This document shows, in pieces, positions 6,222 to 40,028 of a stretch of 59,830 nucleotides of DNA. Source of the DNA: an uncultured Gammaproteobacteria bacterium (GTDB lineage Bacteria; Pseudomonadota; Gammaproteobacteria; Xanthomonadales; SZUA-38); contig CAZLJY010000004.1 in assembly GCA_964559945.1 (NCBI GenBank), positions 1 through 59,830 on the forward strand, written 5' to 3'. Every line of letters starts with the position of its first letter. The stretch's first letter is position 1. Position numbers and translations under genes: made by a program. The notes beneath the pieces were generated by a model that ran no database searches, had not been told where the DNA came from, and saw only the letters and a list, made by a program, of their open reading frames with translations.

Positions 6222-8000
6222 TCAGGGTCTAACTAAGGTGAACGTGTAATTACCACTACCTGAATAGGAATAGACTCGCCAGTAATAAAATCCAGCGGCA
6301 CCGTTATAGGTGATCGATTCATTGGAGCTTGACGACTGGGAGACTCGGACGCGGGTCCAACTGCCAGTCCAGCGATATAGCGCCAAATCAAAGTCAGCGT
6401 TGGAGGGCCCAACCAGGGTACCAATATGCTGACCTGCTCCGCTTTGATAATAGGTTCCGCCAGGCTGTACATCACGATCGTTGCGACCTGACAGGCTGCC
6501 CGTGTAGGTCTCGCCGCCGCCCCCCGGCGGTGTGGTGTCGGGATCCAGCCATTCCTCAACCTGGTCAAAATAACCAGCTAGGGCGCCATCAACCGTTGCG
6601 TTTCGACTGTCACACACGTCAGAAGGGTTGGGGCCGCAAGCACCCGACAACTGCCCGACCACCTGCCCCGATGCGTTTAACACCGGTGAACCGCTAGATC
6701 CCCCTTCGGTGGCTCCAATGGCGTCAGTGGAATAAATCCAGTTGCCTCTGGGCCAGGAACCACAGGTGCCAATACTGGTGCTCACATCGTGGCGGGAATA
6801 GGCCTGGGGAGCGCCTTTAGGATGACTGATTCGAAACAAATCTTGGCCATTGCTGTTAGCAACCGATGAAGCTGTCCAACCCAGAAACGTGGTGCCTGAG
6901 GGCGCATTTTGATTGAGGCGCAGCAGGGTGTAATCACCGGTGGCGCTGGTGCTTAGCAAGGTTGCGCCGTTAGTTCGAGGAACCGCCCCATTCGGGTTAT
7001 AACAACTCCCGCCGCAGCCGGCGCCAAACTGCCAGAAGGCTTCCATACTGTTGGCTTCCGCGTTGCTGCTAATGCAGTGGTTGGCAGTGAGAAAATACGG
7101 CGTTTGGGTGGAACTGTCGGTGTCATTAATTAATCCACCGCTGCAAATAAACGAACTACCACCGCTCACAAATTGAATATGCGCCACACCATCTTTGGTG
7201 TTTTCCATTTGCGCCCAATCAGAATTGTTATAGCAACCGCCATTTTCCACACAGCTGTCGTTGAAGCTGCAAAAGGCCTTTTCTGCCGATGGGCTTAACG
7301 CGCTCGCCACCTGAAAACGAGGTCCGATATGGGCGACCCGGGCAATGGTGAAGTTGAGGAGGTTTGCGCTCTGAGATTTTACGGAATCGTCGAAGGACAA
7401 ACGCACAAAGGCTTCATCACCGGTAATCGTATGAGTCCAAAAATCCCCAGATTTATTCAATCCATCCAAGGTGTAAGGGCCGTACGCCTCGCCGGTTAAA
7501 TTGTAGATGGCCAGGGATGCGCCTTCCGGCAGATGAACATTGGTGAGGTTCAATCGAAGTGCGGTGGCTCCCGGTGATCGAACACCGGCTGTCCAAGCAC
7601 TTTGCGACCCTTCAATTTTCACCACGCCGCCTGAAATAGCTTGTCCGGATTTCAATGCCGTTCGAGATAACGATCCTAGGTCTACCTTATGGCTTAGGTC
7701 GCGAACCTTGCCCGACTCCAACGCCCTGGCTGCGCTACTGCGCTCATCACACGCCACCACACACTGCGCTTCCCCTATGTCGATTTTGTCCTGGTGAGAC
7801 AGAGAGATCTGCAGCATCTCTGTGGCCCCAATATCTGGGTGAGTGGCCAATAGTTGATCAAATAGCTCGGCCTGCAAGGCCTTTTGCTGGTCCTTGTTTT
7901 CCAGCGCGGGTTCAGTGAAGGTTTGTGGCGCCGAAATGTCGACCTGAGCCACGGAAACGCTACTGACTAGTGCAGCGGCAACGAAAAACGATCGTTTCAT
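6222..8000 (-). CDS. Secreted trypsin-like serine protease (lysyl endopeptidase / Achromobacter protease I-like) with C-terminal PPC-like domain
   Basis: Signal peptide MKRSFFVAAALVSSVSVAQ; triad motifs FLTANHC, GDYTLL, TEGGSSGSP; tail ADFDLALYRW...GFYYWRVYSYSGSGNYT. Confidence 0.85.
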   Translation of the reverse strand: MKRSFFVAAALVSSVSVAQVDISAPQTFTEPALENKDQQKALQAELFDQLLATHPDIGATEMLQISLSHQDKIDIGEAQCVVACDERSSAARALESGKVRDLSHKVDLGSLSRTALKSGQAISGGVVKIEGSQSAWTAGVRSPGATALRLNLTNVHLPEGASLAIYNLTGEAYGPYTLDGLNKSGDFWTHTITGDEAFVRLSFDDSVKSQSANLLNFTIARVAHIGPRFQVASALSPSAEKAFCSFNDSCVENGGCYNNSDWAQMENTKDGVAHIQFVSGGSSFICSGGLINDTDSSTQTPYFLTANHCISSNAEANSMEAFWQFGAGCGGSCYNPNGAVPRTNGATLLSTSATGDYTLLRLNQNAPSGTTFLGWTASSVANSNGQDLFRISHPKGAPQAYSRHDVSTSIGTCGSWPRGNWIYSTDAIGATEGGSSGSPVLNASGQVVGQLSGACGPNPSDVCDSRNATVDGALAGYFDQVEEWLDPDTTPPGGGGETYTGSLSGRNDRDVQPGGTYYQSGAGQHIGTLVGPSNADFDLALYRWTGSWTRVRVSQSSSSNESITYNGAAGFYYWRVYSYSGSGNYTFTLVRP

Positions 8001-8244
8001 ACAATTCCCCAATCAAGTGGGGCGGCGCCCGGCAGGACGCAGCACCCGTGAGCGCGTCGTCCTTGAGCTGATGTGTCCTTGAGGGCCAGGCTTTGGACCT
8101 GACTTGACGGAAACTATACGGATTAAATCACGGTAAACAGCAAAATATGTCACATACTTCGGACATTTTATCTGTTAACCGGGTTCGAGGTTCTGACAAA
8201 GCAGACCTCACAATAGCCAATCGGGCACTGCCTTTACCGGCCAA

Positions 8245-10302
8245 TTAACGGTCTGGATGGCGCTCCACCAGGGTCAAGATGTCATACAAGGCAACAGCCT
8301 CGGACTCCTGGTTGGTGACCTCCACGGCCCAGCGCACCACCCCTTGGGGAACGTCATCGGGCTCGCGCTGTTCTTTCTTGATTTTTTGTTTAACGGTGAT
8401 GGTCACCTGGATGGTGTCACCAATGCCTACCGGCTCAATAAAACGCAGGTTATCCAGCCCGTAGTTAGCCAGTACCGGGCCGGGTGCTGGATCCACAAAC
8501 ATCCCCGCCGCCGCGGATATCACAAAATAGCCATGGGCCACTCGCCGTCCAAAAATGGGCGATGCCTTCGCTGCTGCATCGTCGAAATGAGCATAAAAAT
8601 GGTCACCGGACAGACAGCCGAAATTGACAATGTCCGCTTCGGTAATGGTGCGTCGGTGGGTAGTTAAAGATTCACCAATTTCCAGTTCATCAAAATATTT
8701 GCGGAAGGGGTGTACCGGATCATTCTTAACCGCCGCACCGGGTACGTATTCATTGGTGATGTGCATCAAGGTGGTGGGTGACCCCTGCAACGCCGTGCGA
8801 CGCAAATAGTGTTTAACCGCCCGCGCACCTCCTAACTCCTCGCCCCCCCCGGCACGCCCAGGGCCACCATGGACCAGCGATGGCATCGGTGAACCGTGGC
8901 CGGTAGACGCCGCGGCACAGTCTCGATTGATGATCAGCATCCTTCCATGATGGGCTGCGGTGCCCAGAATTAGTTCTCGCGCCTCAGCGTTATCAAAGGT
9001 AAAAACCGAACCCACTAACGACCCTCTTCCCCGGCGGGCAATCTCCACCGCTTCCGCATTGCCCTGGTAGGGCATCAAGGTACTGACCGGACCAAAGGGC
9101 TCGATGGCGTGGGGGCCTGCCATGGTTGCCAATGGGCTTTCACAGGCCAGCAAGGTGGCGGGGAAAAAGGCGCCAGCTTTAGCATCAGCCTCGGTGACTG
9201 AAAACTCTCGGTGGCCGCCATGGACTACCTCACAACCCTCAGCGGTTAACGCTTCCACCGCGGCCCACACGTCAGCACGCTGATCATTACCCACCAGGGG
9301 ACCCATTCTCACGCCCTTCACTGAGGGATCACCCAGCACCGTTTTGTCCAATCGAGCAGCGATCGCCTGCTGCACAGCGTCCTGATACGCCGACGGCACA
9401 ATCGCTCGGCGAATTGCGGTACATTTCTGCCCGGCTTTCACCGTCATTTCTCTGACCACCTCTTTGACGAAGAGATCAAATTCCTGGGTACCCGGCTCCG
9501 CTGACTGACCCAGGATGCAGCAATTAAGGGAGTCGGCTTCCATGTTAAATGGGATAGACCGGGCAAGAATATTGGGGTGTGCGCGCAGTTTCACCCCGGT
9601 ACTGGCCGAACCGGTAAAGGTGACCACATCTTGCTCTTCCAGGTGATCCAACAGGTCGCCGGTACTGCCGCTGATGAGTTGAATCGCCCCTTCCGGGAAC
9701 AGCTTTGACGCAACGATCTCCTGCACCATGGCTTCGGTCAGATAGGAGGTTACGGTGGCCGGCTTCACCACCACTGGCATTCCAGCGGCCAGTGAGGGGG
9801 CAATTTTTTCTAGCATGCCCCAACAAGGAAAATTGAAGGCGTTAATGTGCACTGCCACCCCTTCCCGAGGACTGAGCATATGGCGGCCAACAAAACTCCC
9901 GTCCTGAGAAAGTGGCTCAACCCCACCTTCAACCATCACCGTATCGTTGGGAAATTCTCGGCGCACAATGGAGGAGTAGGCAAACAAGGTACCGATTCCA
10001 CCCTCAATATCCACCCAACCATCGGCTCGCGTTGCGCCTGTCCAGGCCGACACCTCATAGAATTTCTCTTTCTTCTCTAGCAGATGTTTGGCCAATGCTT
10101 TCAGCGCCAATGCTCGGTCGTGAAAGGTCATCTTGCGCAAATTTGCGCCGCCGGTGTCCCGAGCAAAACGCACAACTTCGGCAAAGTCGATGCCGGCTGA
10201 CGATACCTGGGCAACGGCAGCACCGGTCACCGCATTGTGAACAGTAACGCCCTCTTCATCGCTGCGGTGCCAGCCACCGTTAACGTAACTTGCAAGCTTC
10301 AT
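8245..10302 (-). CDS. paaZ: Bifunctional oxepin-CoA hydrolase / aldehyde dehydrogenase
   Basis: ALDH domain ([20 protein letters not shown]) plus C-terminal MaoC domain ([15 protein letters not shown]); lies in a paa cluster. Confidence 0.95.
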
Positions 10303-26282: not shown

Positions 26283-28487
26283 TTAACTAAAGGACTGCCC
26301 AGCGGGCAGGCGCACAGGCAAACGACGTATTCGAACCCCGGAGGCCGCATAGATCGCATTAGCTAAGGCCGGTGCAACCACCGGGGTGCCCGGTTCGCCA
26401 GCGCCGCCGGGTGGATTGTCGCTACTAACGATGTGCGTCTCAATCACCGGGGTCTCGTTTAAGCGCAGCATCTTGTAGTCATGGAAATTGCTTTGGGCGA
26501 CGGCCCCATCCTCGATGCCAATATCGCCATAGAGCGCTGCCGTAAGACCAAAGATAATGCCCGACTCCATTTGCGCCGTAAGTCCATCGGGGTTGACGGC
26601 GAAACCAGGGTCAATGACGCAAACCACTCGTTCAACGCTGACGTTGCCACTGTCCACCAACACCTCAACCACCAATGCCACATGACTACCAAAAGACGCT
26701 TGAACGGCAATGCCCCGTCCACGCCCTGGGGTCATTGGTGCGGACCATCCCGCCTTCTGAGCAGCCAGCTCTAAAACGTTGCGCTGGCGCGGAGCGTTGA
26801 CTAACAGGTCGCGACGAAATTCAAAGGGATCGCGTTTGCCCGCCGCCGCCAATTCATCGATAAAGGATTCGGTGAAAAAACTCTGTTGAGAATGATCCAC
26901 ACTACGCCAGGGCCCAAATGGCACATGGGTAGAACTTTCCAGACTGTAAATGGACTGATTGGCAATGGCGTAGGGTATATGGGCCGCTCCCGGCGGATGC
27001 ATTTTGTGCACGTAGTAATTGGTCCACGCTACCGGATTTCCCTGCCCGTCCAGTGCACCCTCAAACCGACTGATCGCTGCGGGCCGATATCGATCCTGAC
27101 GGATATCTTCTTCCCGAGACCAAATGAGTTTGACCGGTCGCGCTACGGCTTTTGACAGCTGTGCGGCTTGGATAGCCACCCCTGCGTCTGTACGCCGGCC
27201 AAATCCTCCACCCATATAAAAGTTGTGAACTTCGACATCTTCATCGTCGATATCCAAGGCTTTGGCGACCTCGCCGCGATACCCCAACGGGTTCTGGGTA
27301 CCGGTCCAGACGTCCACCTTACCCTCACTGTAACGGGCAGTGGCATTCAGCGGCTCCATTGTCGCGTGAGCCAGGAACGGCACGCGATAGTTCGCTGCGA
27401 TCCGAGTCTCCGCCGACGCCAATGCGCCGGCCGCATCTCCCTCAACAAAGTCCTTTTTACCCTCATCATCGGCAATTGCGGTATCAATATCGCCCTCAAA
27501 CTGAGCAAAAATATCATCGCTGTTAAGGGTGTGGGTGCCGGTCTGTGTCCACTGGACGTCGACCTTCGCCAGAGCCTGTTTTGCGGTCCAGTAACCATCG
27601 GCTACTACCGCGACCGCATTGCCCAGATTCACCACGTCGTAAACGCCAGCCATGTTCTTGGCCTTGGCATCGTCAACTTTTACCACTTCGCTGCCAAACA
27701 CCGGGCTTTGTAAAATCGTTGCGTAAGCCAGCCCATCCACTTGGGCATCGATACCAAACTGGGCGCTGCCGTCGGTTTTTTCCGGAATGTCGAAGCGCTT
27801 CACCGACTGACCAACGAGGGTAAACTCATCCGGGGTTTTCAAACGCGGCGACACCGGCGGGGTAATTTGCGCCGCAGCGGCGGCAAATTCCGCATAAGGC
27901 GCTCGCCGATCACCGTGGATGACATGGCCAGCCTGGGTTTTCAGAGACTCTACCGGCTCACCCCAAGCTTCGGAGGCCGCCTCTAGCAACATTTCTCGCG
28001 CTGCAGCGCCAGCTACCCGCAAGCCGAATTGACCAGTGGCCCGGATACTGGAACTGCCACCGGTGACTTGCACATTCAATAGCTGGGTCAGTTCCAATAG
28101 CGCGCCATCCACCGTTGGGATCAACAATTTAGGAAATTCCGCCTCGGGCAGAAAAACGCCTCGTACGATTGAATGGTTGGCATACTCCTTATGGGCAGGA
28201 GCCTCTTCTACTCGAATTTGGGACCAATCCGCATCCAGCTCATCGCCCACCATTTGCGCCAATGCCGTCTGCGCACCCTGGCCCATCTCTGAATGGGGAA
28301 CAATCGCGGTAATCGTGTTATCTGGCGCAATCTTGACCCAGAGGTTTAACAACGACTCGCCATCCTCGGTCATTAACGAGGCCATTTCCGGCGCCCGATG
28401 GCCGGGACGCACAGCAACACCCAGCACCAAGGTGCCACCTGCCGCTAGGCCTGCGCCGATAAATGCTCTGCGAGACCACTTGTTCAT
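26283..28487 (-). CDS. Molybdopterin-binding subunit, xanthine oxidase family (isoquinoline 1-oxidoreductase beta-like), Tat signal
   Basis: SRRAFIG twin-arginine motif, [28 protein letters not shown]. Confidence 0.92.
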
Positions 28488-29098: not shown

Positions 29099-31360
29099 CT
29101 AGGGAGAGGTCAGCGATTCAAAACCGGACCGAAACAACGCCGGGTCAATCAATACGGGCCCTGGAATGCGGTTATCTCGCCGGTTCAATCCCAGTTGATC
29201 ACTGGCATTGCTGCCCCAACAGCTGACCGCACCGGCGCTGCTCAGGGCACAGGTATGGGCGGCACCGGCGCTGATTTGCACAACCCCGCCAGCTAAGCCT
29301 AAAACCGCCACCGGTCCCAGCCGAGAATCGGTGGAATCGTCGCCTAATTGCCCATTGCTGTTTTCACCCCAACACAGTGCACTGCCGTTTTGAAGCGCGC
29401 AGCTGTGAGAGTCGCCGGCGCTGATGCTGGTGACCCCGCTAGCGAGCCCCTGGACCCGCTGGGGCAACAATTGAATTAAGGTGTTGAAGCCAAGACCGAG
29501 CTGACCATCCTCGTTTTCTCCCCAACACAACGCCTCCCCGCCGCTAACCACCGCGCAGCTATGCTCGGTGCCCGCACTGACCACACTGGTCCCTCTTACG
29601 GGAAAATCTAGAGCCACCGCTGTGAACGCCGTGTCCGTTGCATTGTTGCCAATCTGGCCGGCACTATTTAAACCCCAGCAAAAAGCGCTACCGTCGTTGG
29701 TGCTAGCACAAGAGTGAAAGCCCCCTGCGGTAACGCTAGTGACGCCGCTGCGAAGGTCAATAACCTGCACCGGCGCCGTTTGATTGGACAGGCTAGCATC
29801 ACCCAATTGACTTTCGATGTTGCGTCCCCAGCATTGAGCAGCGCCGCTGGCGGTACTGGCGCAGGTATGAAAGTCGCCCGCTTCAATCATGGCGGCTCCA
29901 CTGACCAAGCCGCTTACGACCGTGGGCGTTAGCTGATCTGGCAACGCTTCCACGCCAATCTGACCAAACTCATTGCTACCCCAGCACAGTGCCTGGGACC
30001 CTTGGGTCACCGCACAACTGTGGGATCGGCCGGCGGATATTTGGCTGACGTTGCTGAGGCCCGCCACGTTCACCGGGATCGGTTGGCGCTCAGTGTCGCC
30101 GACCCCCACTTGGCCCCGGGAATTGCTACCCCAACATCGAACACTGCCATTGCTCAATAAGGCACAACTGTGTGAGGCGCCGGTAGCGATGGACTGAACG
30201 CCGCTTTGTAGTCCGGGTACCGGTGTTGGGGAAAGTCTAAACCAGGGCTCGTTGTCTCCCAGCTGGCCGGCAGCGTTGCTACCCCAGCACTGCACCGTTG
30301 CATCTTGGGTCAGTGCACATGTGCTGGTTCGACCGGCATGAACTTCAACCGCGTTGTTAAGGTTCGCTGTAGTCGCCGGCGGGTAACGATCTTCCCTAGA
30401 GCCATCACCCAGCTGACCAAAGGCATTGTCAGACCAGCAACGCACCGTTCCGTCATTCAATGTGGCACAGGCGTGGTCGTAACCGGCGCTCACCTGACTG
30501 ACCCCCGAGGCCAGGCCTTCAATATCAAACAGTTCAAGGGGGTCCGGGTCGAAGGTGTCAAACACACCTAGCTGACGGTCGTAATTGTCGCCCCAGCATT
30601 TAACCCCGCCACTGTCGGTGACTGCGCAGTTAAAATATTCCCCAGCGCTCACTGACCTGACACCACTTTGCAAACCCGCCACTGCGGTTGGTCTACCGAC
30701 GGACTGAAAGCCGCAGCCGAAGGTATTGCAAATACGATCAACCACCCCCCAACAGTCCACGGCGCCGTTGATATCCAGGGAGCAGGTGTTGGCTCGGCCT
30801 GCACTAATGGCCGTGATATTTTGTCGGGTACCCACTGGGGTGGCCTGTTGTCGATTATCCGTATCGCCAGTACCTAGCTGCGCATCACCGTTAAAACCCC
30901 AGCAGCTAACCCCACCATTGCTGCGCAGGGCGCAGGCGTGAACACCGCCAACACTGACCGACTGCGCATCGTCAATGGCCCCTACCATCACCGGCTCGTT
31001 GCTAGAGCGGGTATCGCCATTTCCCAGTTGTCCAAGAAAATTGTCACCCCAGCACTGTACATTGCCATTGCTCATCGCCGCGCAGGTATGGCGTTCACCG
31101 GCACTGACCGAGACCACGCCACTGGAAAGACCGATGACGTCAGCCGGCGTAAAACGGGATTGATTGTCACCGGTGCCCAGTTGGCCGTTGAAATTGTTGC
31201 CCCAACATTTCACCCCGCCGGCCTCAGTGAGCACGCAGGCATGGGACCGACCCTTAGCGAGCTCAACGACCCCCGATAGGGGCGCCAGATCCTGTGCTGC
31301 CGCTAAGCCAGTCACCGCGGTTAGCAACACCGCGAATGTCAAAAACCCTAATCTGTGCAT
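29099..31360 (-). CDS. Secreted RCC1-repeat protein (14 repeats) ending in LFRSGFESLTSP
   Basis: Signal peptide; 14 copies of H[ST]CA...CW[GS]xNxxGQ[LVI]G, one of them degenerate. Confidence 0.92.
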   Translation of the reverse strand: MHRLGFLTFAVLLTAVTGLAAAQDLAPLSGVVELAKGRSHACVLTEAGGVKCWGNNFNGQLGTGDNQSRFTPADVIGLSSGVVSVSAGERHTCAAMSNGNVQCWGDNFLGQLGNGDTRSSNEPVMVGAIDDAQSVSVGGVHACALRSNGGVSCWGFNGDAQLGTGDTDNRQQATPVGTRQNITAISAGRANTCSLDINGAVDCWGVVDRICNTFGCGFQSVGRPTAVAGLQSGVRSVSAGEYFNCAVTDSGGVKCWGDNYDRQLGVFDTFDPDPLELFDIEGLASGVSQVSAGYDHACATLNDGTVRCWSDNAFGQLGDGSREDRYPPATTANLNNAVEVHAGRTSTCALTQDATVQCWGSNAAGQLGDNEPWFRLSPTPVPGLQSGVQSIATGASHSCALLSNGSVRCWGSNSRGQVGVGDTERQPIPVNVAGLSNVSQISAGRSHSCAVTQGSQALCWGSNEFGQIGVEALPDQLTPTVVSGLVSGAAMIEAGDFHTCASTASGAAQCWGRNIESQLGDASLSNQTAPVQVIDLRSGVTSVTAGGFHSCASTNDGSAFCWGLNSAGQIGNNATDTAFTAVALDFPVRGTSVVSAGTEHSCAVVSGGEALCWGENEDGQLGLGFNTLIQLLPQRVQGLASGVTSISAGDSHSCALQNGSALCWGENSNGQLGDDSTDSRLGPVAVLGLAGGVVQISAGAAHTCALSSAGAVSCWGSNASDQLGLNRRDNRIPGPVLIDPALFRSGFESLTSP

Positions 31361-33318: not shown

Positions 33319-34902
33319 TCACGTTCCGTTTCTCATTGTTTCACCAAGCCCTTCGAGGGTTACCGGGGTAAGCCACGGTGCATCGGGAAAGGCCCGACGG
33401 GCTGCACAACCCAATGGGTCATCAAGCAGACTGATCCAGCGCCCCATTGATCGATCGGGCTCGGGAAGTTCAGTCAGTTGTGAAATCGTGCCAGCAATAT
33501 CATCGCAAGCCAACACCGCATTAAGTTGACCGGTCAAACTGTTCCCGTCCAGCCGGGGAAGTCCTTCCAACGCGTTGGCCGGCTGCGGGTCATCCCAGGG
33601 TGCAAACATCTGCCGCATACGCAGCCAATGCCATGCTTCAACCCAATGGCTGCCGCTGGTTCGTGGGGTAAGGTCCGGCAGTACCATGTCAGCGGGACGA
33701 GGGTTGAGCAGAGCAAGATCACAATCAAATTGTTGTGCCAGCATCATGCCCAACCCAGCGCTTTCGCCGATAGCCAGCACCTCAGGAGGGGCTTGCAGTG
33801 TTTCGGACAGCTGCCGATACACCTCCGCGACATCCTGCAGAAAACTACTCGACGGCATGCTTGCGCCATGCCCGGGAAGATCCGGCACGATGCAGCGTCG
33901 ATGCTGACTCAAGGCAGTAGTCACCGTACCGATTGCCGCCGCGTTAAATCCGGGTTGGTGAAGGATTAACAGAGGTTTGCCGGATCCGACCACGTAAAGA
34001 TGTATACGCCCCAGGTAGGTTCTGGGTTCATCGACCTGGGGTAAATTCGTTGGCGGCTCAACCATGGAGGCGCAATTCTGACGGTCCACCTCCTCAACCA
34101 GCGCCGTCGCCCGCTGTTCCATGGTCGGCCCACATTTCACCATCCGAAAGTTATCGCCAAAGGGGTAATTGTCAAACAGATCGGTATAGGGTTTTACGAT
34201 GCTTCCCTCCCAGCGTATGACGCTAGTGGGCACCGTGACCTCCTGTAACAGAGCAACATTTTCGCAAATAAAGGCCTCGCGATACGCCCAGGCGTAGTTG
34301 GGGCCTGCAGCCAAAACCTGGTTGGCAAAACTATTTGTAACTGCCGGACTCAGACCGCCCTGGGGTAAACGGGCACCATGATCTGGCCAGGGGAAAAATA
34401 GCAATTGATCCCTGGCCAGGGACCAGGTTCGCGTGAGATGCCCGCCTAGGTCATCAATAGGAATTTCAGGAAAGTAGCCATCAATCAGTCGATCGCGCTC
34501 TTCGTCGCTGAAATGCGCCGCGTTGTCAGCGATAAGGTATAAGCATCGCGATGGGTAGCTGCGAGCATAGGCCACGCCAATTTGCGCGCCCGTGGCGGTT
34601 CCGTAAACGCCCATTTTTTCAAAACCCATGGCAATGCGAAACTGCTCCAGTGCCTCTGCGTATTGAGTCAAACCCTCTCCAGTGGGGTTTGTTGGCAGCG
34701 GATCTGATAAGCCGTAGCCGGGTGTATCTAATGCCAGCACCATGGCCTTTTGGGACAAAGGCTCAGCCAGGGGCATCAACATCTTTGACGACAACGGAGA
34801 GGCATGCAGCATCACTAACGGCGGCCCGGAACCCGCCGTTCGATAGTGAATCAACCGAGGTTGATTTGCTGTCCCAATATTGACATATGCACAGCGCATC
34901 AT
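33319..34902 (-). CDS. Tandem alpha/beta-hydrolase-fold protein
   Basis: Domain 1: MLHASP, LDTPGYGLSD, elbow YGTATGA. Domain 2: ILHQPG, PDLPGHGAS, IGESAG. Confidence 0.8.
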   Translation of the reverse strand: MMRCAYVNIGTANQPRLIHYRTAGSGPPLVMLHASPLSSKMLMPLAEPLSQKAMVLALDTPGYGLSDPLPTNPTGEGLTQYAEALEQFRIAMGFEKMGVYGTATGAQIGVAYARSYPSRCLYLIADNAAHFSDEERDRLIDGYFPEIPIDDLGGHLTRTWSLARDQLLFFPWPDHGARLPQGGLSPAVTNSFANQVLAAGPNYAWAYREAFICENVALLQEVTVPTSVIRWEGSIVKPYTDLFDNYPFGDNFRMVKCGPTMEQRATALVEEVDRQNCASMVEPPTNLPQVDEPRTYLGRIHLYVVGSGKPLLILHQPGFNAAAIGTVTTALSQHRRCIVPDLPGHGASMPSSSFLQDVAEVYRQLSETLQAPPEVLAIGESAGLGMMLAQQFDCDLALLNPRPADMVLPDLTPRTSGSHWVEAWHWLRMRQMFAPWDDPQPANALEGLPRLDGNSLTGQLNAVLACDDIAGTISQLTELPEPDRSMGRWISLLDDPLGCAARRAFPDAPWLTPVTLEGLGETMRNGT

Positions 34903-34918: not shown

Positions 34919-36517
34919 TCAGGCGTTTGGGTTTTCGTTACCCAGCCCCAGACTTCCCGGATTCATTCGATGAGCGGGGTCCAAAGCATCTTTGATGTCC
35001 ACTAGTGCTTTCCAAGTCCGAGGGTTCACTGCACTTAAGGGATAGGTTTTTCCCACCTGAAAGTGGACGGCACCTACCGCTGCAAAGATGTCGACCATCG
35101 CCGAGCGCAGACGATCCACTTCTGCTCGCGCCTCAAGGTTTTCATCAAAACCCGTCATCCGTTTACGCACCGAGGGTTCCACGGTTAAATCGTGGAGCTC
35201 AGCCATGGCATCAGGCCAGAAAAAAACCGGCTCTAAAAGAAAGCAGCTGGTGGATACGGTGGCAAATAGATAACCCACCTCAATGTTGTGTTTTTCGATG
35301 GTGGCTGCCTCGCGCTTCTCCAGGTCCTGGATCTGGCCTGTCACCAGCGCGGCCTTGGAGTGAGGCACCAGCGCGTGAATAGGCGCCCATCGCTCGCCAT
35401 TGGGTCCCACCACGTTATTGAGTGGAGTGAATGGATTGGCCCGCAAAATCCTCGGGATAGAATCGTCCAAGGCCTTGCCATTGCGCTGCGCACAGATATC
35501 TGCGATGTCATTGGCACAGGCGGCGGCGGCGGCTTCCACTCTCTCTTCCACCATAAAATGGGTAGAGAAGATTGCATCATCCATGAACTTTCGCCCGGCC
35601 AAAGCGACCTTCAGGCCACTTTTCAACGCGCCGCCCACAGAACCGCTGGCTTTCATCACCCCGGCCAGGGATTTCACATCTTTGGCCAAACTCTCGCGCT
35701 TCAAACGCATGCCCGTTAAGCAAGGGTCAAAGGCAAAACACTCCATCGCCAATCCCTGTCGGCTAACCTCGCTCATGGCGCTGATCATGTCTTTGTAGTC
35801 ATCAAAGGCGAATGACAAATACCGTCGCGCATCCATCTGTTGAATGAGCTGGAGGGTGACGGTGGCCTTCATGCCTAGGGCGCCGGTGTCGCCGGTGAAT
35901 AAGCCGGTCAGGTCTGGCCCAAAATGACGGAAAAAGGGATTGCCGTTTGGCTGCGCGCCCGAGCCGGTAACCACCACCTCGCCGTCAGCCAAAACCACCT
36001 CCATCCCGATGACGGAATCGGCGCTCACGCCGTATCGTCCCGAGCCCCAGAACATGGCGTTTTGAGACATGCCCCCGCCCACTGTGGCGGTAATACCTGA
36101 CAAGGTGCCCCAAAACGGCGTGCGCAATCCGGTGTCTTTTAGCGCATTGTGTAAATCCAACCAAGTGCAACCGCTTTGCACTTTGACGTACATGTCTTCC
36201 TGGTTGATTTCCAGCACCTGGTTCATGGCCGACATATCTACCAATACGGTTCCCGCTTGAGTCGCCAAATATCCAGCGGTATAGGACATACCGCCGCCGC
36301 GAGCGACCACCGCCTGACCCGCCTCAGCGCATATCGTCACTACCTGACTCAGTTGCTCTGTTGTGGTTGGAGATACCACCACGCAGACCGGCTCGCCTCG
36401 GCAATAGACATCCTGGGACATTAACGCAATCGTTGCCTCATCCACCGCAACCTGGGATGGATCCAAGAGGTGTTGCAGCTGTTCAATCAGCGTGTCGGTT
36501 GATCGTGCTTGAGCCAT
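34919..36517 (-). CDS. FAD-linked oxidase (VAO/PCMH-GlcD superfamily), paralog 2
   Basis: ARGGGMSYT, LRTPFWG, ATVGGGMSQN, GPDLTGLF, HFQVGKTYP, DPAHRMNPG. Confidence 0.88.
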   Translation of the reverse strand: MAQARSTDTLIEQLQHLLDPSQVAVDEATIALMSQDVYCRGEPVCVVVSPTTTEQLSQVVTICAEAGQAVVARGGGMSYTAGYLATQAGTVLVDMSAMNQVLEINQEDMYVKVQSGCTWLDLHNALKDTGLRTPFWGTLSGITATVGGGMSQNAMFWGSGRYGVSADSVIGMEVVLADGEVVVTGSGAQPNGNPFFRHFGPDLTGLFTGDTGALGMKATVTLQLIQQMDARRYLSFAFDDYKDMISAMSEVSRQGLAMECFAFDPCLTGMRLKRESLAKDVKSLAGVMKASGSVGGALKSGLKVALAGRKFMDDAIFSTHFMVEERVEAAAAACANDIADICAQRNGKALDDSIPRILRANPFTPLNNVVGPNGERWAPIHALVPHSKAALVTGQIQDLEKREAATIEKHNIEVGYLFATVSTSCFLLEPVFFWPDAMAELHDLTVEPSVRKRMTGFDENLEARAEVDRLRSAMVDIFAAVGAVHFQVGKTYPLSAVNPRTWKALVDIKDALDPAHRMNPGSLGLGNENPNA

Positions 36518-37573: not shown

Positions 37574-38230
37574 TCAGAACGAAGGCTTGTCAATTCCAAG
37601 CCACGCGGCAATCAGAACCAGAGCGTAGATTGTTAACACCACCCAATATACTGGCCCGATAGCTTTGCTGTAGGCCGCATTTTTCTGATCGTCGGCGCCC
37701 TCCATTGCAATGCTCATAAAGACATCCACGGCCGGCTTGAATAGGACATCAAGAATCACACCGGCAACAAAAATCAGACCCACACTTAATACCTTCAGCG
37801 CCAGCCAGGTGGGCACCGAATCACCCAACAACAGACCAATAGCAATGCCCGAAACTGCGAGCGCCAACACCCCATTGGCAAAGAAATTGAAGGTCATCAC
37901 GCGTTTTTCCAGCGGCGTCTCTGGATTGAGAAAACCCACCCAAAGGATTGTCGCCCAGGCAAGACCCGCAGCCCATACAGCGCCCAGAACGGTGTTAGAA
38001 ACATCTACCAAATTTAATAACACCGCCAAACTCAGGCCCGAGGGAAGAATCAAGGTCAGCGCGGTCCGCGGCATCCGGTCCAGCACCAAGGCAACTTTTA
38101 GTACGGTAACCCGGGTTTCCACACTCAAATCGGAGCGTTCGGTGGCCTTCGCCCCTAATAGAACCCCAAGATCAGTGCCCAGCCAAAATACCAACAGCAG
38201 GATGTGGAAGAAGATGAGTAAGCTATACAT
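37574..38230 (-). CDS. Hypothetical integral membrane protein (about 6 TM)
   Basis: FHILLLVFWLGTDLG...; its ATG overlaps the upstream stop (TAATG). Confidence 0.8.
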   Translation of the reverse strand: MYSLLIFFHILLLVFWLGTDLGVLLGAKATERSDLSVETRVTVLKVALVLDRMPRTALTLILPSGLSLAVLLNLVDVSNTVLGAVWAAGLAWATILWVGFLNPETPLEKRVMTFNFFANGVLALAVSGIAIGLLLGDSVPTWLALKVLSVGLIFVAGVILDVLFKPAVDVFMSIAMEGADDQKNAAYSKAIGPVYWVVLTIYALVLIAAWLGIDKPSF

Positions 38231-38511
38231 TAGTTATCAATGTTCCTGGCGGCGCCCATGACGTCGCGTATGAGTTTTCCGGCGGCGGCATCTAGCGAGC
38301 CACTGTCCTGCTCGCTGAATTCGCTGTTTTCCATCTCTTCTGCACTCACCAGCCCTTTATCGGCGAGCAACTTTTCTAACATGGCGTGACGCTCCCTTAG
38401 CGCCCAGTGCTCTTCCAACAGACGGGTGACAATAGCCAGCAGCCGATCCACATCTGGGTCATCAAAAAAGGCCGTGCGTCCCCCTTTTACCTCGCGGCTC
38501 ATTTCATCCAT
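38230..38511 (-). CDS. Small hypothetical helical protein (93 aa)
   Basis: GGRTAFFDDPDVDRLLAIVTRLLEEHWALRERHAMLEKLLADKGLV; ATG at 38511 overlaps the methyltransferase stop (TGATG). Confidence 0.8.
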   Translation of the reverse strand: MDEMSREVKGGRTAFFDDPDVDRLLAIVTRLLEEHWALRERHAMLEKLLADKGLVSAEEMENSEFSEQDSGSLDAAAGKLIRDVMGAARNIDN

Positions 38512-39695
38512 CAGGCTTTCACCGCGCCGAAGCCATACCATTTGATTTGATCTGTCAAACGCCCAGTATCTTCGTCAAATTCCGCAGAACCTGTGACCGC
38601 CTGGGAGAATTCCTCATCGCTCACGTAAGTCTTGCGAGGCATAACCGCCTCAAAAAATCCGTCCGCCGGGAAACCCGCCTTGACGGTGAGTTCGGGAAAA
38701 CTCTGATCACGAAATGGTTTATAGAACGGCTCGTTATTGTAGTAACTGTCCCAGTCTAGGTAGAAGCCCTCGTAGGGACCCATCGCTGAATTGGGTGGCA
38801 ATTCCATATTCAGCAGTACGCCGCCAGGGCGCAGGACTCGATGGGCTTCAGCCATAAACGCATCAATCATTTTCAACGGCAGCTCATGGAGAAACATTGA
38901 CGTGAAGACAACATCAACGCTGTTATCGGCAAACGGCAGACAATCACCGGAGGCCTGCTGAAAGTGCGCCTCAATATTCATGCCCTCAGCCCGGGCATGG
39001 GCGTATCGAAGGCAAGCTTCGGACAGATCAAGCCCGGTCACCTTGGCATCGGGGAAGGTCTGCTTCCACGGCAAGGTGTTGTGACCGATGGTACACCCCA
39101 CATCCACCACCTGTTGTGGATCGATGTGCGGAAATTTGAGTTTGAAAAATGATGCCATGGACCAGCCAATATCGTTGAGCTGTTTGCCCATGGCACCGAA
39201 GGCAAATACATTAAGACCGTTATCGTAGACCGCGCCGGGTTCCACCGTTGCCTCCTGCGAGCCTCGGTAGTTGGAGGGCATGAGGTGTACGTCCACCGCA
39301 TTGGCATAGCGAGGTGGGTCCAACTGCGGATCAACGGTCAAACTACCCTTGGGGTTTTGGGTCAGTGACTGTACGGTTTCGTTCAATCCATCCCGGTTAC
39401 TTTGGACCGAGTCCATCACGCTGTCCCATACCAGCTCTTGGGCGGTGCAACGAAGGCTAGAGTAAAAATTAAAGCTAGGGGTGTTTTTTAAAATGTCATG
39501 AACCTGATTGCCAGTGACCGGCTCCTGTCCCCCGCTCTTAAGGTGTGCTGGCAATAGCTGAGTTTCGAAATCCGCCTGCATCTCCCCGGCTAAGTCCATT
39601 AACACGTAGCCGCGCAGGCCCGACACAAATCGTTCACGTGATCGCTCGTCCCGCGTCTTCTTGAGGTCCAGCGGGTGATTTAACTGGGTATCCAT
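38511..39695 (-). CDS. Class I SAM-dependent methyltransferase-fold protein with long N-terminal extension
   Basis: VVDVGCTIG, GLDLS, LPFADNSVDVVFTSMFLHE, RVLRPGG. Confidence 0.88.
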   Translation of the reverse strand: MDTQLNHPLDLKKTRDERSRERFVSGLRGYVLMDLAGEMQADFETQLLPAHLKSGGQEPVTGNQVHDILKNTPSFNFYSSLRCTAQELVWDSVMDSVQSNRDGLNETVQSLTQNPKGSLTVDPQLDPPRYANAVDVHLMPSNYRGSQEATVEPGAVYDNGLNVFAFGAMGKQLNDIGWSMASFFKLKFPHIDPQQVVDVGCTIGHNTLPWKQTFPDAKVTGLDLSEACLRYAHARAEGMNIEAHFQQASGDCLPFADNSVDVVFTSMFLHELPLKMIDAFMAEAHRVLRPGGVLLNMELPPNSAMGPYEGFYLDWDSYYNNEPFYKPFRDQSFPELTVKAGFPADGFFEAVMPRKTYVSDEEFSQAVTGSAEFDEDTGRLTDQIKWYGFGAVKA

Positions 39696-39811
39696 GGGCC
39701 AATCCTAATGTCCGTACAGGCCCTTAGTGTGCCGCGTTTGCCGTTAATTGTCGAAACTAGCGAGGCGATTTATTTCTTTCTGGCCCTAACACAATGCCAC
39801 CCGCAGTGATT

Positions 39812-39994
39812 TTAATCATCACCGTCACTGCCTTCCTGCTCTGCCATCTCCTCCCACTGATCCAAGGCATCATCCCGTAAGGATTTTGCCCCGGGTCGGA
39901 CGGATTTTGCCGGCGGCTTATGGGCGCCCCCTTTTTTCAGAAATGGGTTGCGAGCTACCGGGTTTCGCTTTTTTACATTGAGTTTTTTTCCCAT
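39812..39994 (-). CDS. Small basic hypothetical protein (RNPVA...KKGGAH)
   Basis: MGKKLNVKKRNPVARNPFLKKGGAHK..., acidic tail; same strand as its neighbours. Confidence 0.6.
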   Translation of the reverse strand: MGKKLNVKKRNPVARNPFLKKGGAHKPPAKSVRPGAKSLRDDALDQWEEMAEQEGSDGDD

Positions 39995-40028
39995 GGAACA
40001 TTCCAATGGCGTCTCGACGACCCCTCAA

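Follow-up and report, generated by a model that had tools for sequence, protein, structure and literature searches.

A 59,830-nucleotide stretch of DNA from a marine gammaproteobacterium (contig CAZLJY010000004.1, referred to throughout as the window) carries a head-to-tail trio of genes on its minus strand, encoding a methyltransferase (MT), a small helical protein (SM) and a membrane protein (MEM). We propose, with a probability of roughly 0.45, that MT and SM form a heteromeric small-molecule methyltransferase and that MEM is a facultative component delivering the substrate at the inner membrane. We infer the MT–SM complex because the linkage between the two genes is strict, tight and independent of lineage, and the delivery role of MEM because its family associates promiscuously with enzymes and TonB receptors. 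The three genes are arranged as follows.

38511–39695, minus strand: MT, an open reading frame (ORF) of 394 residues with its ATG at 39695 and a TGA stop at 38513–38511 (coding 39695–38514).
38230–38511, minus strand: SM, an ORF of 93 residues with its ATG at 38511–38509 and a TAA stop at 38232–38230 (coding 38511–38233).
37574–38230, minus strand: MEM, an ORF of 218 residues with its ATG at 38230–38228 and a stop ending at 37574 (coding 38230–37577).

The stop codon of MT and the start codon of SM have one base in common (TGATG), as do the SM stop and the MEM start (TAATG). Both overlaps, which the first-pass annotation had placed at 38511 and 38230, were recovered at these coordinates when the ORFs were checked. 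An alternative SM of 103 residues can be read from an ATG at 38541; the 93-residue form, proposed from the start, is preferred because the homologues all begin about four residues ahead of a conserved SREV(K/R)GGR segment. Bacterial operons often contain one-nucleotide overlaps, which by themselves say little. What exceeds chance is the tight MT–SM junction kept across 18 clades, not the overlaps as such.

The linkage was examined in 80 loci (of 424 GTDB matches), retrieved by searching one-per-species bacterial genomes with an MT alignment; SM genes were detected in these loci with an iterated local profile. The loci come from Halieaceae/Luminiphilus, Woeseiaceae, Candidatus Foliamicus, Lentisalinibacter, Steroidobacteraceae, Chromatiales and others, and grouping the MTs at 70% identity yields 18 clades spanning about 50–100% MT identity. 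SM directly follows MT in 77 of the 80 loci, the contig ending at MT in the other three, and it is present in all 18 clades. In 69 of the 80 loci, the nearest plausible start of SM lies no more than 13 nucleotides from the MT stop, and in 39 of those the genes overlap by 1, 4 or 8 nucleotides. SM is never displaced from the slot directly after MT, whereas all other neighbours reshuffle among the clades. No MT–SM fusion was found among the best 120 MT homologues or in the 80 loci, and apparent long SM reading frames in GC-rich genomes are out-of-frame upstream extensions. Such strict co-occurrence, combined with such a tight junction, is what would be expected of two subunits. Two loci, labelled Nitrosopumilus sp. 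(L015) and Rhodobiaceae (L023), carry the gammaproteobacterial MT–SM pair, with MT identities to the window of 61% and 58%, respectively; in L015 the pair is also accompanied by a TonB receptor and MEM. Both contigs are probably mis-binned.

The same linkage bears on the possibility that no complex exists and that the genes merely share an operon, with MT active alone, SM serving as a small regulator or in a chaperone-like way unrelated to MT, and MEM independent. This account draws on the general commonness of short overlaps in bacterial operons, on the clear separability of MEM from the MT–SM pair, and on the fact that most class I small-molecule methyltransferases among the nearest structures need no partner. 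It is difficult to reconcile with an SM gene that, over 18 clades at about 50–100% MT identity, was never found without MT or out of its place while the other neighbours change. We therefore consider it unlikely, though deserving of some weight.

MT is a class I S-adenosylmethionine (SAM)-dependent methyltransferase of a distinct family with its own helical N-domain, and thus a new family inside a well-known superfamily. Pfam assigns Methyltransf_25 (79.9 bits, cut-off 27), Methyltransf_11 (74.8 bits, cut-off 21.2) and Methyltransf_31 (53.4 bits, cut-off 27) to residues ~190–300 only, with Methyltransf_12 also above its cut-off; no Pfam match was found for the first ~190 or the last ~95 residues. 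The AlphaFold2 model shows one compact body (predicted local distance difference test score (pLDDT) 85, predicted template-modelling score 0.87), in which a helical N-domain precedes a Rossmann core. Strands at residues 195–199, 218–223, 244–247, 260–266 and 288–298, with helices between them, form the alternating β–α core. In a Foldseek search, more than 1000 methyltransferase chains of the PDB match the model at E ≤ 1e-3 with a probability of 1.00. The nearest folds are small-molecule O-, C- and N-methyltransferases with template-modelling scores of about 0.4 (Rv2258c, RedM, DsyB, CouO, NovO, MitM, RebM and the phosphoethanolamine methyltransferases (PMT)), and matches to protein lysine methyltransferases are weak. 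Only the SAM core aligns: neither Foldseek nor a profile search against the PDB gave a solved counterpart for the N-domain (~1–190) or the C-domain (~300–394). The methyltransferase fold and the N-terminal extension of about 190 residues, both suggested by the first-pass annotation, are thereby borne out.

The unusual motif I that had been pointed out in MT (DVGCTIG) proved to be a property of the whole family. It comprises D198-V-G-C-T-I-G204, and all its residues except T202 are invariant in an alignment of 20 members. T202, which stands where the canonical (D/E)xGxGxG has its middle glycine, is at least 90% conserved and is replaced by serine in one member. The extended motif reads D-V-G-C-T-I-G-H-N-T-L-P-W, again with T202 alone falling short of invariance. 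Over the full length of MT, 106 columns of this alignment are invariant, and the N-domain contributes the conserved blocks YSSxRC, DVHLMP and NVFAFG. More than 2000 database homologues were found, of which the best 120 are full-length at 55–89% identity; where named, they are labelled "class I SAM-dependent methyltransferase" or "UbiE". The family is found in marine Gammaproteobacteria.

Compared with characterized enzymes, MT shares the Rossmann SAM core with a motif I segment, the acidic residue after strand 2 and the segment after strand 4 with class I small-molecule methyltransferases such as phosphoethanolamine N-methyltransferase, RebM, MitM, CouO/NovO and LahSB. It departs from them in the G-C-T-I-G of motif I, where they have G-x-G-x-G, in the ~190-residue N-domain and ~95-residue C-domain, which match no family or structure (template-modelling score about 0.4 overall), and in the dedicated small partner gene that always follows. 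The helical N-terminal domain placed before the core recalls the two-domain O-methyltransferases Rv2258c, RedM and DsyB. The quinone C-methyltransferases UbiE/MenG provide the best NCBIfam match of the SAM domain (TIGR01934), yet the score of 56.1 bits lies well under the cut-off of 158.35, and MT is far below the cut-off of every UbiE equivalog model in NCBIfam. The pairing of a class I methyltransferase with a small protein that would stabilize or activate it has a functional analogy in Trm112, a zinc-knuckle β-protein of ~100–135 residues that activates Trm9, Trm11, Mtq2 and Bud23, which methylate tRNA, rRNA and release factors. There is no homology: SM is all-helical and matches no Pfam or NCBIfam family. 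Two identifications were rejected. MddH, like MT, comes from marine gammaproteobacteria and is a UbiE-like thiol methyltransferase, but it is described as a single-domain protein of 24.24 kDa with 37% identity to E. coli UbiE (PMC11445057). On this description MT is set apart by its architecture, having 394 residues and additional N- and C-domains. A known anti-phage defence system was discarded because in PADLOC only the generic SAM domain of MT matched, to mad2, and SM and MEM gave no match.

SM has no Pfam or NCBIfam family, and a scan of its homologues gave the same result. A word-index search, which reaches close relatives only, returned nine clusters. In all retrieved loci SM was seen only beside MT. 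The protein is helical, with a basic (K/R)G(G/x)R-x-x-F-F start, a long helix and an acidic, variable middle; the FFDDPxxDxL and LEKLLADKGLV motifs that had first drawn attention to it are present, the former as FFDDPDVDRLL. R12, D22 and E46 are invariant across clades and R41 nearly so, and an (S/A)G(A/R)N(I/V) tail is kept in most of the clades closer to the MT of the window. SM diverges faster than MT, with identities between clades of 25–50% as opposed to 50–60%. Its ratio of nonsynonymous to synonymous substitution rates against a 69%-identical orthologue is nevertheless about 0.1, with saturated synonymous sites, and SM is therefore a real protein under purifying selection.

The first-pass annotation had also likened SM to the N-terminus of the nitrile hydratase α chain, and this likeness did not hold. 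In a profile search against the PDB, 26 residues matched the α chain of a cobalt nitrile hydratase, but the per-stretch E (6–7) is at the level of chance, and homology was rejected on this ground. Weak NHase_beta_N matches occur in 4 of 25 SM homologues (best E 0.012). The helix-turn pattern R-x-x-A-L-E-x-L-L-x-E-x-G-(I/V/L) of the α N-terminal helix and the β N-terminal domain resembles residues ~39–64 of SM, but no other part of nitrile hydratase is present, SM has no metal-binding motifs and no nitrile hydratase genes lie nearby, leaving a resemblance only.

The invariant residues of SM, being charged rather than hydrophobic, would suit a different relationship, in which SM is the substrate of MT. 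SM would then act in signalling or regulation, and its methylation, perhaps at the invariant arginine of (K/R)GGR or at the invariant Glu46, would serve as a dedicated switch. The N-terminal RGG-like motif resembles sites of arginine methylation, and strict adjacency of an enzyme and its substrate is plausible. The structural neighbours of MT speak for another kind of substrate, however, as they are mostly small-molecule methyltransferases with protein lysine methyltransferases matching weakly. Moreover, the operon partners are metabolic enzymes and transport proteins, and an enzyme would not usually have its substrate translationally coupled to it one to one. We regard methylation of SM by MT as improbable and favour a role of SM as a subunit.

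MEM likewise has no Pfam or NCBIfam family. All three proteins thus belong to uncharacterized families, MT being recognized by its generic SAM domain alone, in line with the initial impression of the trio. The AlphaFold2 model of MEM (pLDDT 94.5) contains seven helices, which are read as six membrane-spanning helices and one amphipathic helix, consistent with the six-helix membrane architecture predicted beforehand. No fold match was found in the PDB; the best Foldseek hits (E 0.14) are to G-protein-coupled receptors, rhodopsins and designed bundles. The family is broad: an HMMER scan of 1.84 billion cluster representatives gives it at least 728 members at E ≤ 1e-3, of which 460 reach E ≤ 1e-10, while a word-index search gave 155 matches, well below the HMMER count. 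Most of the 150 relatives listed are stand-alone proteins of about 220 residues, with some shorter fragments and a few longer proteins. The HxxxxxFWLGxD pattern noted earlier in the first transmembrane helix, H9-ILLLV-FWLGTD20 in MEM, is conserved at H9, W16, G18 and D20 even in relatives at 24–34% identity, in which R40, D51, G65, W92 and K146 are invariant as well. H9, D20, R40, D51 and K146 are positioned within predicted membrane helices or at their ends, as in secondary transporters. By our own reading of Lys/Arg counts in the odd-numbered loops, the conserved loops and a helical hairpin (~165–193) would be cytoplasmic.

Sub-threshold Pfam matches of MEM family members lead to a further proposal, namely that MEM is a haem b- or metal-binding protein of the HemJ/CopD/DUF2269 type that forms a membrane-bound enzyme complex with MT–SM, the substrate being lipid-soluble, for instance a quinone or tetrapyrrole-like compound. 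The matches are to DUF2269 (3 of 30 and 4 of 36 members, best E 8e-4), SirB (2 of 36, 1e-3), DUF4149 (3 of 36), UPF0093 (HemJ; 2 of 36) and DUF2214 (1 of 36). We take these to be related small membrane families with a histidine in the first transmembrane helix; CopD, presumably related too, gave no match here. HemJ binds haem. The families share with MEM the H-x6-W-x-G pattern of the first transmembrane helix and its invariant histidine, and MEM differs in having six transmembrane helices with a cytoplasmic helical hairpin and in reaching the threshold of no family. This likeness is a lead and not a membership. A cofactor-binding role would also accord with the UbiE/MenG model as the best, far sub-cut-off NCBIfam match of the MT domain, and with a distant MEM relative followed by a lipoprotein that has a C-terminal CxxCH cytochrome c motif (L084, below). 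On the other side, all the Pfam matches are below threshold and occur in 1–4 of 30–36 members, many MEM partners are non-redox proteins (MT, glutathione S-transferase (GST), enoyl-CoA hydratase, deaminase and hydrolases), no genes for quinone or tetrapyrrole biosynthesis lie nearby, and MT–SM exists without an adjacent MEM. We consider such a complex improbable, though MEM may still bind a cofactor. A system resembling those for ribosomally synthesized and post-translationally modified peptides (RiPPs), in which SM would be a precursor with a nitrile-hydratase-like leader, MT its modifying enzyme and MEM an exporter or immunity protein, could be evoked by the presence of LahSB, a RiPP C-terminal methyltransferase, among the best PDB sequence matches of MT and by the contact of the SM profile with the N-terminal helix of nitrile hydratase α, but it is largely refuted, since the former match covers the generic SAM domain only and the latter 26 residues at a per-stretch E of ~6, no NHLP, nitrile hydratase α or other RiPP family was found in Pfam or NCBIfam (at E ≤ 1 for SM), SM is conserved at both ends and varies only in its acidic middle with neither a hypervariable core nor a Gly-Gly site, and no protease, cyclase or ABC exporter is conserved near MT–SM in the 80 loci.

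The association of MEM with the MT–SM pair is facultative. About 58 of the 80 loci, and about 11 of the 18 clades, have MEM after SM. In these, MEM separates SM from the next gene of the operon, as seen by comparing L074 (MT–SM–MEM–Old Yellow Enzyme (OYE)) with L064, L076 and L079 (MT–SM–OYE). To view the family apart from MT, eleven MEM loci (L084–L094), reached through ten members from the representative search, were examined. Neither MT nor SM was found near MEM in any of them, and their gene contents are as follows.

L084: MEM, then a predicted lipoprotein of 681 residues (6669–8714) whose C-terminus carries a CxxCH cytochrome c motif; an α/β hydrolase and a TonB receptor are near.
L085: a MEM relative, then an α/β hydrolase fragment related to the hydrolase of the window.
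L086 and L087: a zinc-type dehydrogenase, then a fused double MEM of 456 residues (the same protein, P0290, in both; L086 5001–6371).
L088: a distant MEM relative (P0365), then a FAD_binding_4 oxidase (867–2111).
L089: MEM on a 1.6-kb contig, adjoining a divergent gene fragment.
L090: MEM flanked by two TonB receptors.
L091: a GntR regulator, MEM, then a protein related to a Luminiphilus neighbour.
L092: two MEM genes in tandem, 4 nucleotides apart (332–1837).
L093: MEM, then an enoyl-CoA hydratase.
L094: MEM between a GST and a deaminase.

Since MEM occurs beside chemically different cytoplasmic enzymes and repeatedly beside TonB receptors, a component for transport or hand-over is the simplest reading. 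The variety of partners fits such a general role better than one tied to a single chemistry. The fused 456-residue pair and the adjacent MEM genes hint at a functional unit that may be a dimer of about 12 helices. These surveys divide the proposal of a multi-subunit enzyme system made in the first-pass annotation, together with the co-occurrence by which it was to be judged. The MT–SM part is supported by the linkage described above; MEM as an obligate third subunit is not, as it is not beside MT–SM in about one third of the clades and its family, which reaches far beyond the surroundings of MT, stands beside unrelated enzymes where MT and SM do not occur.

Two genes that follow MEM in the window extend this picture.

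34919–36517, minus strand: a FAD_binding_4 oxidase of 532 residues (Pfam), one gene beyond MEM.
33319–34902, minus strand: a double α/β-hydrolase of 527 residues (Pfam), which follows the oxidase and provides tentative context.

The oxidase of the window is 43% identical over 416 residues (E 1e-120), the level of an orthologue, to the one directly following MEM in L088, which contains no MT or SM. This suggests that the link between MEM and the oxidase may be independent of the methyltransferase, and the oxidase of the window is possibly a functional partner of MEM rather than of MT–SM. In Luminiphilus/Halieaceae (L041–L063), a second MEM paralogue of ~216 residues lies ~5 kb upstream of MT and is followed by a major facilitator superfamily (MFS) transporter and a short-chain dehydrogenase/reductase (SDR). 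Upstream of it stands, depending on the locus, an unnamed protein of 220 residues, an unnamed protein of 242 residues or (nearby) an isochorismatase-like protein. One unnamed family recurs beside MEM paralogues in unrelated contigs (L091 4702–5196 and the Luminiphilus gene g22, e.g. L063 1130–1858; 33% identity); it has no Pfam match, and isochorismatase-like and α/β hydrolase genes lie near its members.

The wider neighbourhood of MT–SM contains several recurrent genes. By clade (of 18), these are SDRs in about 11, HapK-like proteins in about 9, TonB receptors in about 8 and OYE flavoenzymes in about 7, in addition to a SnoaL/DUF4440 protein, an ADH_N_2 reductase and an MFS transporter. Some clades add a GST, a class III CoA-transferase, an enoyl-CoA hydratase and a KstD/flavocytochrome-c-like flavoprotein. 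The flavoenzyme is a FadH/OYE-type Fe-S protein of ~660 residues, whose closest models (mycofactocin-type OYE, BaiCD and bilirubin reductase) are all far under their cut-offs. The SDR, the flavoprotein and the CoA-transferase are likewise far below every NCBIfam equivalog cut-off, and for this reason no pathway can be named. Taken together, the neighbours suggest that a hydrophobic or cyclic compound is imported and processed. SDR, NTF2-like, KstD-like and OYE-type proteins in one set are reminiscent of steroid ring-modifying enzymes, an analogy in which no model reaches its equivalog threshold. A literature search on methyltransferases of Luminiphilus in connection with TonB gave no relevant paper, as judged by title and abstract.

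In the lineage of the window, MT–SM is surrounded by genes for α/β hydrolases, an M20 peptidase, an EamA transporter, the FAD oxidase and a TRAP transporter. Upstream of MT lies the following region.

39696–39811 (116 nucleotides), minus strand: intergenic region, the presumed promoter or leader of the three-gene unit by its position.

Consensus scans for promoters and terminators were uninformative: these 116 nucleotides gave no sigma-70 match, and terminator-like matches were fewer than in shuffled sequence. An Rfam scan of the whole window gave no RNA family, and hence no riboswitch leader is indicated. Just beyond this region, an ORF of 64 residues at 39812–40006 (minus strand) has a very basic N-terminal half (KKLNVKKRNPVARNPFLKKGGAHKPP) and an acidic tail; it matches no Pfam family and is a candidate gene only. 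Elsewhere in the window, a protein of 753 residues (29099–31360, minus strand) consists almost entirely of RCC1 repeats (13 RCC1_2 stretches; RCC1-like domain 687 bits) and is adjoined by a second long ORF of 734 residues at 26283–28487. In Candidatus Foliamicus and its relatives (L025–L037), MEM is followed by a GST, an enoyl-CoA hydratase, a second, unrelated methyltransferase-domain protein of ~348 residues and then an SDR, with a class III CoA-transferase and a DUF4437/ChrR-type cupin upstream.

In the mechanism that we propose, MT would act as a cytoplasmic class I SAM-dependent small-molecule methyltransferase. SM, made in step with MT from the overlapping start, would be its obligate small helical subunit, packing onto the family-specific N- or C-domain of MT and thereby stabilizing the enzyme or completing its substrate site. 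MEM would be a facultative third component that most likely brings the substrate of MT–SM across the inner membrane or hands it over there. The module would sit in clusters that process an imported organic compound, probably hydrophobic or cyclic.

Several points weigh against this mechanism. The complex is deduced from gene linkage, and strict adjacency would be equally expected if SM were the substrate or a regulator of MT. MEM is not found within 6 kb of MT–SM in Lentisalinibacter, in several Woeseiaceae and in most of the clade at 50% MT identity, so that the methyltransferase does not depend on a MEM gene next to it. The Lentisalinibacter carriers include the cultured strains L. orientalis YNA5901 and L. 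salinarum X77 (loci L032 and L073). The weak, sub-threshold resemblance of MEM to DUF2269, SirB, HemJ and DUF4149 would also be compatible with a cofactor-binding role. The SDR, OYE and TonB neighbours of other lineages are missing from that of the window, so that the wider pathway is not uniform. Finally, the sequence was recovered in four metagenome runs, all of them of DNA.

A more far-reaching form of the proposal would have SM provide part of the substrate site in a new type of two-subunit small-molecule methyltransferase, MEM found a new, widespread family of small inner-membrane permeases providing the cytoplasmic-membrane step in TonB-dependent uptake of many organic compounds other than sugars and siderophores in marine Gammaproteobacteria, and the module as a whole form an unrecognized route for uptake and methylation of a cyclic or hydrophobic compound in abundant marine heterotrophs such as Luminiphilus/OM60, Woeseiaceae, Candidatus Foliamicus and their relatives. 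In view of the SDR, SnoaL, KstD-like and OYE neighbours, such a compound might be steroid-like. We consider this extended form doubtful as a whole. Nothing in the MT–SM–MEM module is mechanistically surprising as yet; what was unexpected is how strictly the small subunit is coupled and how large the MEM family is.

The MT family has hundreds of members in Luminiphilus/Halieaceae, Woeseiaceae and Candidatus Foliamicus, and the first two groups are heterotrophs common in coastal water and marine sediment. To our knowledge, no substrate has been assigned to any member of the family. A small subunit so strictly coupled, if confirmed, would be an unusual design for a small-molecule methyltransferase, and an obligate role of SM would explain why MT expressed alone might fail. 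The MEM family is large, has a confidently predicted fold, no solved relative and no name, and recurs beside TonB receptors; should it provide the inner-membrane step of TonB-dependent uptake, many marine "utilization loci" would become easier to read. With three uncharacterized families in one conserved module, the MT–SM–MEM genes offer a well-defined target for experiment.

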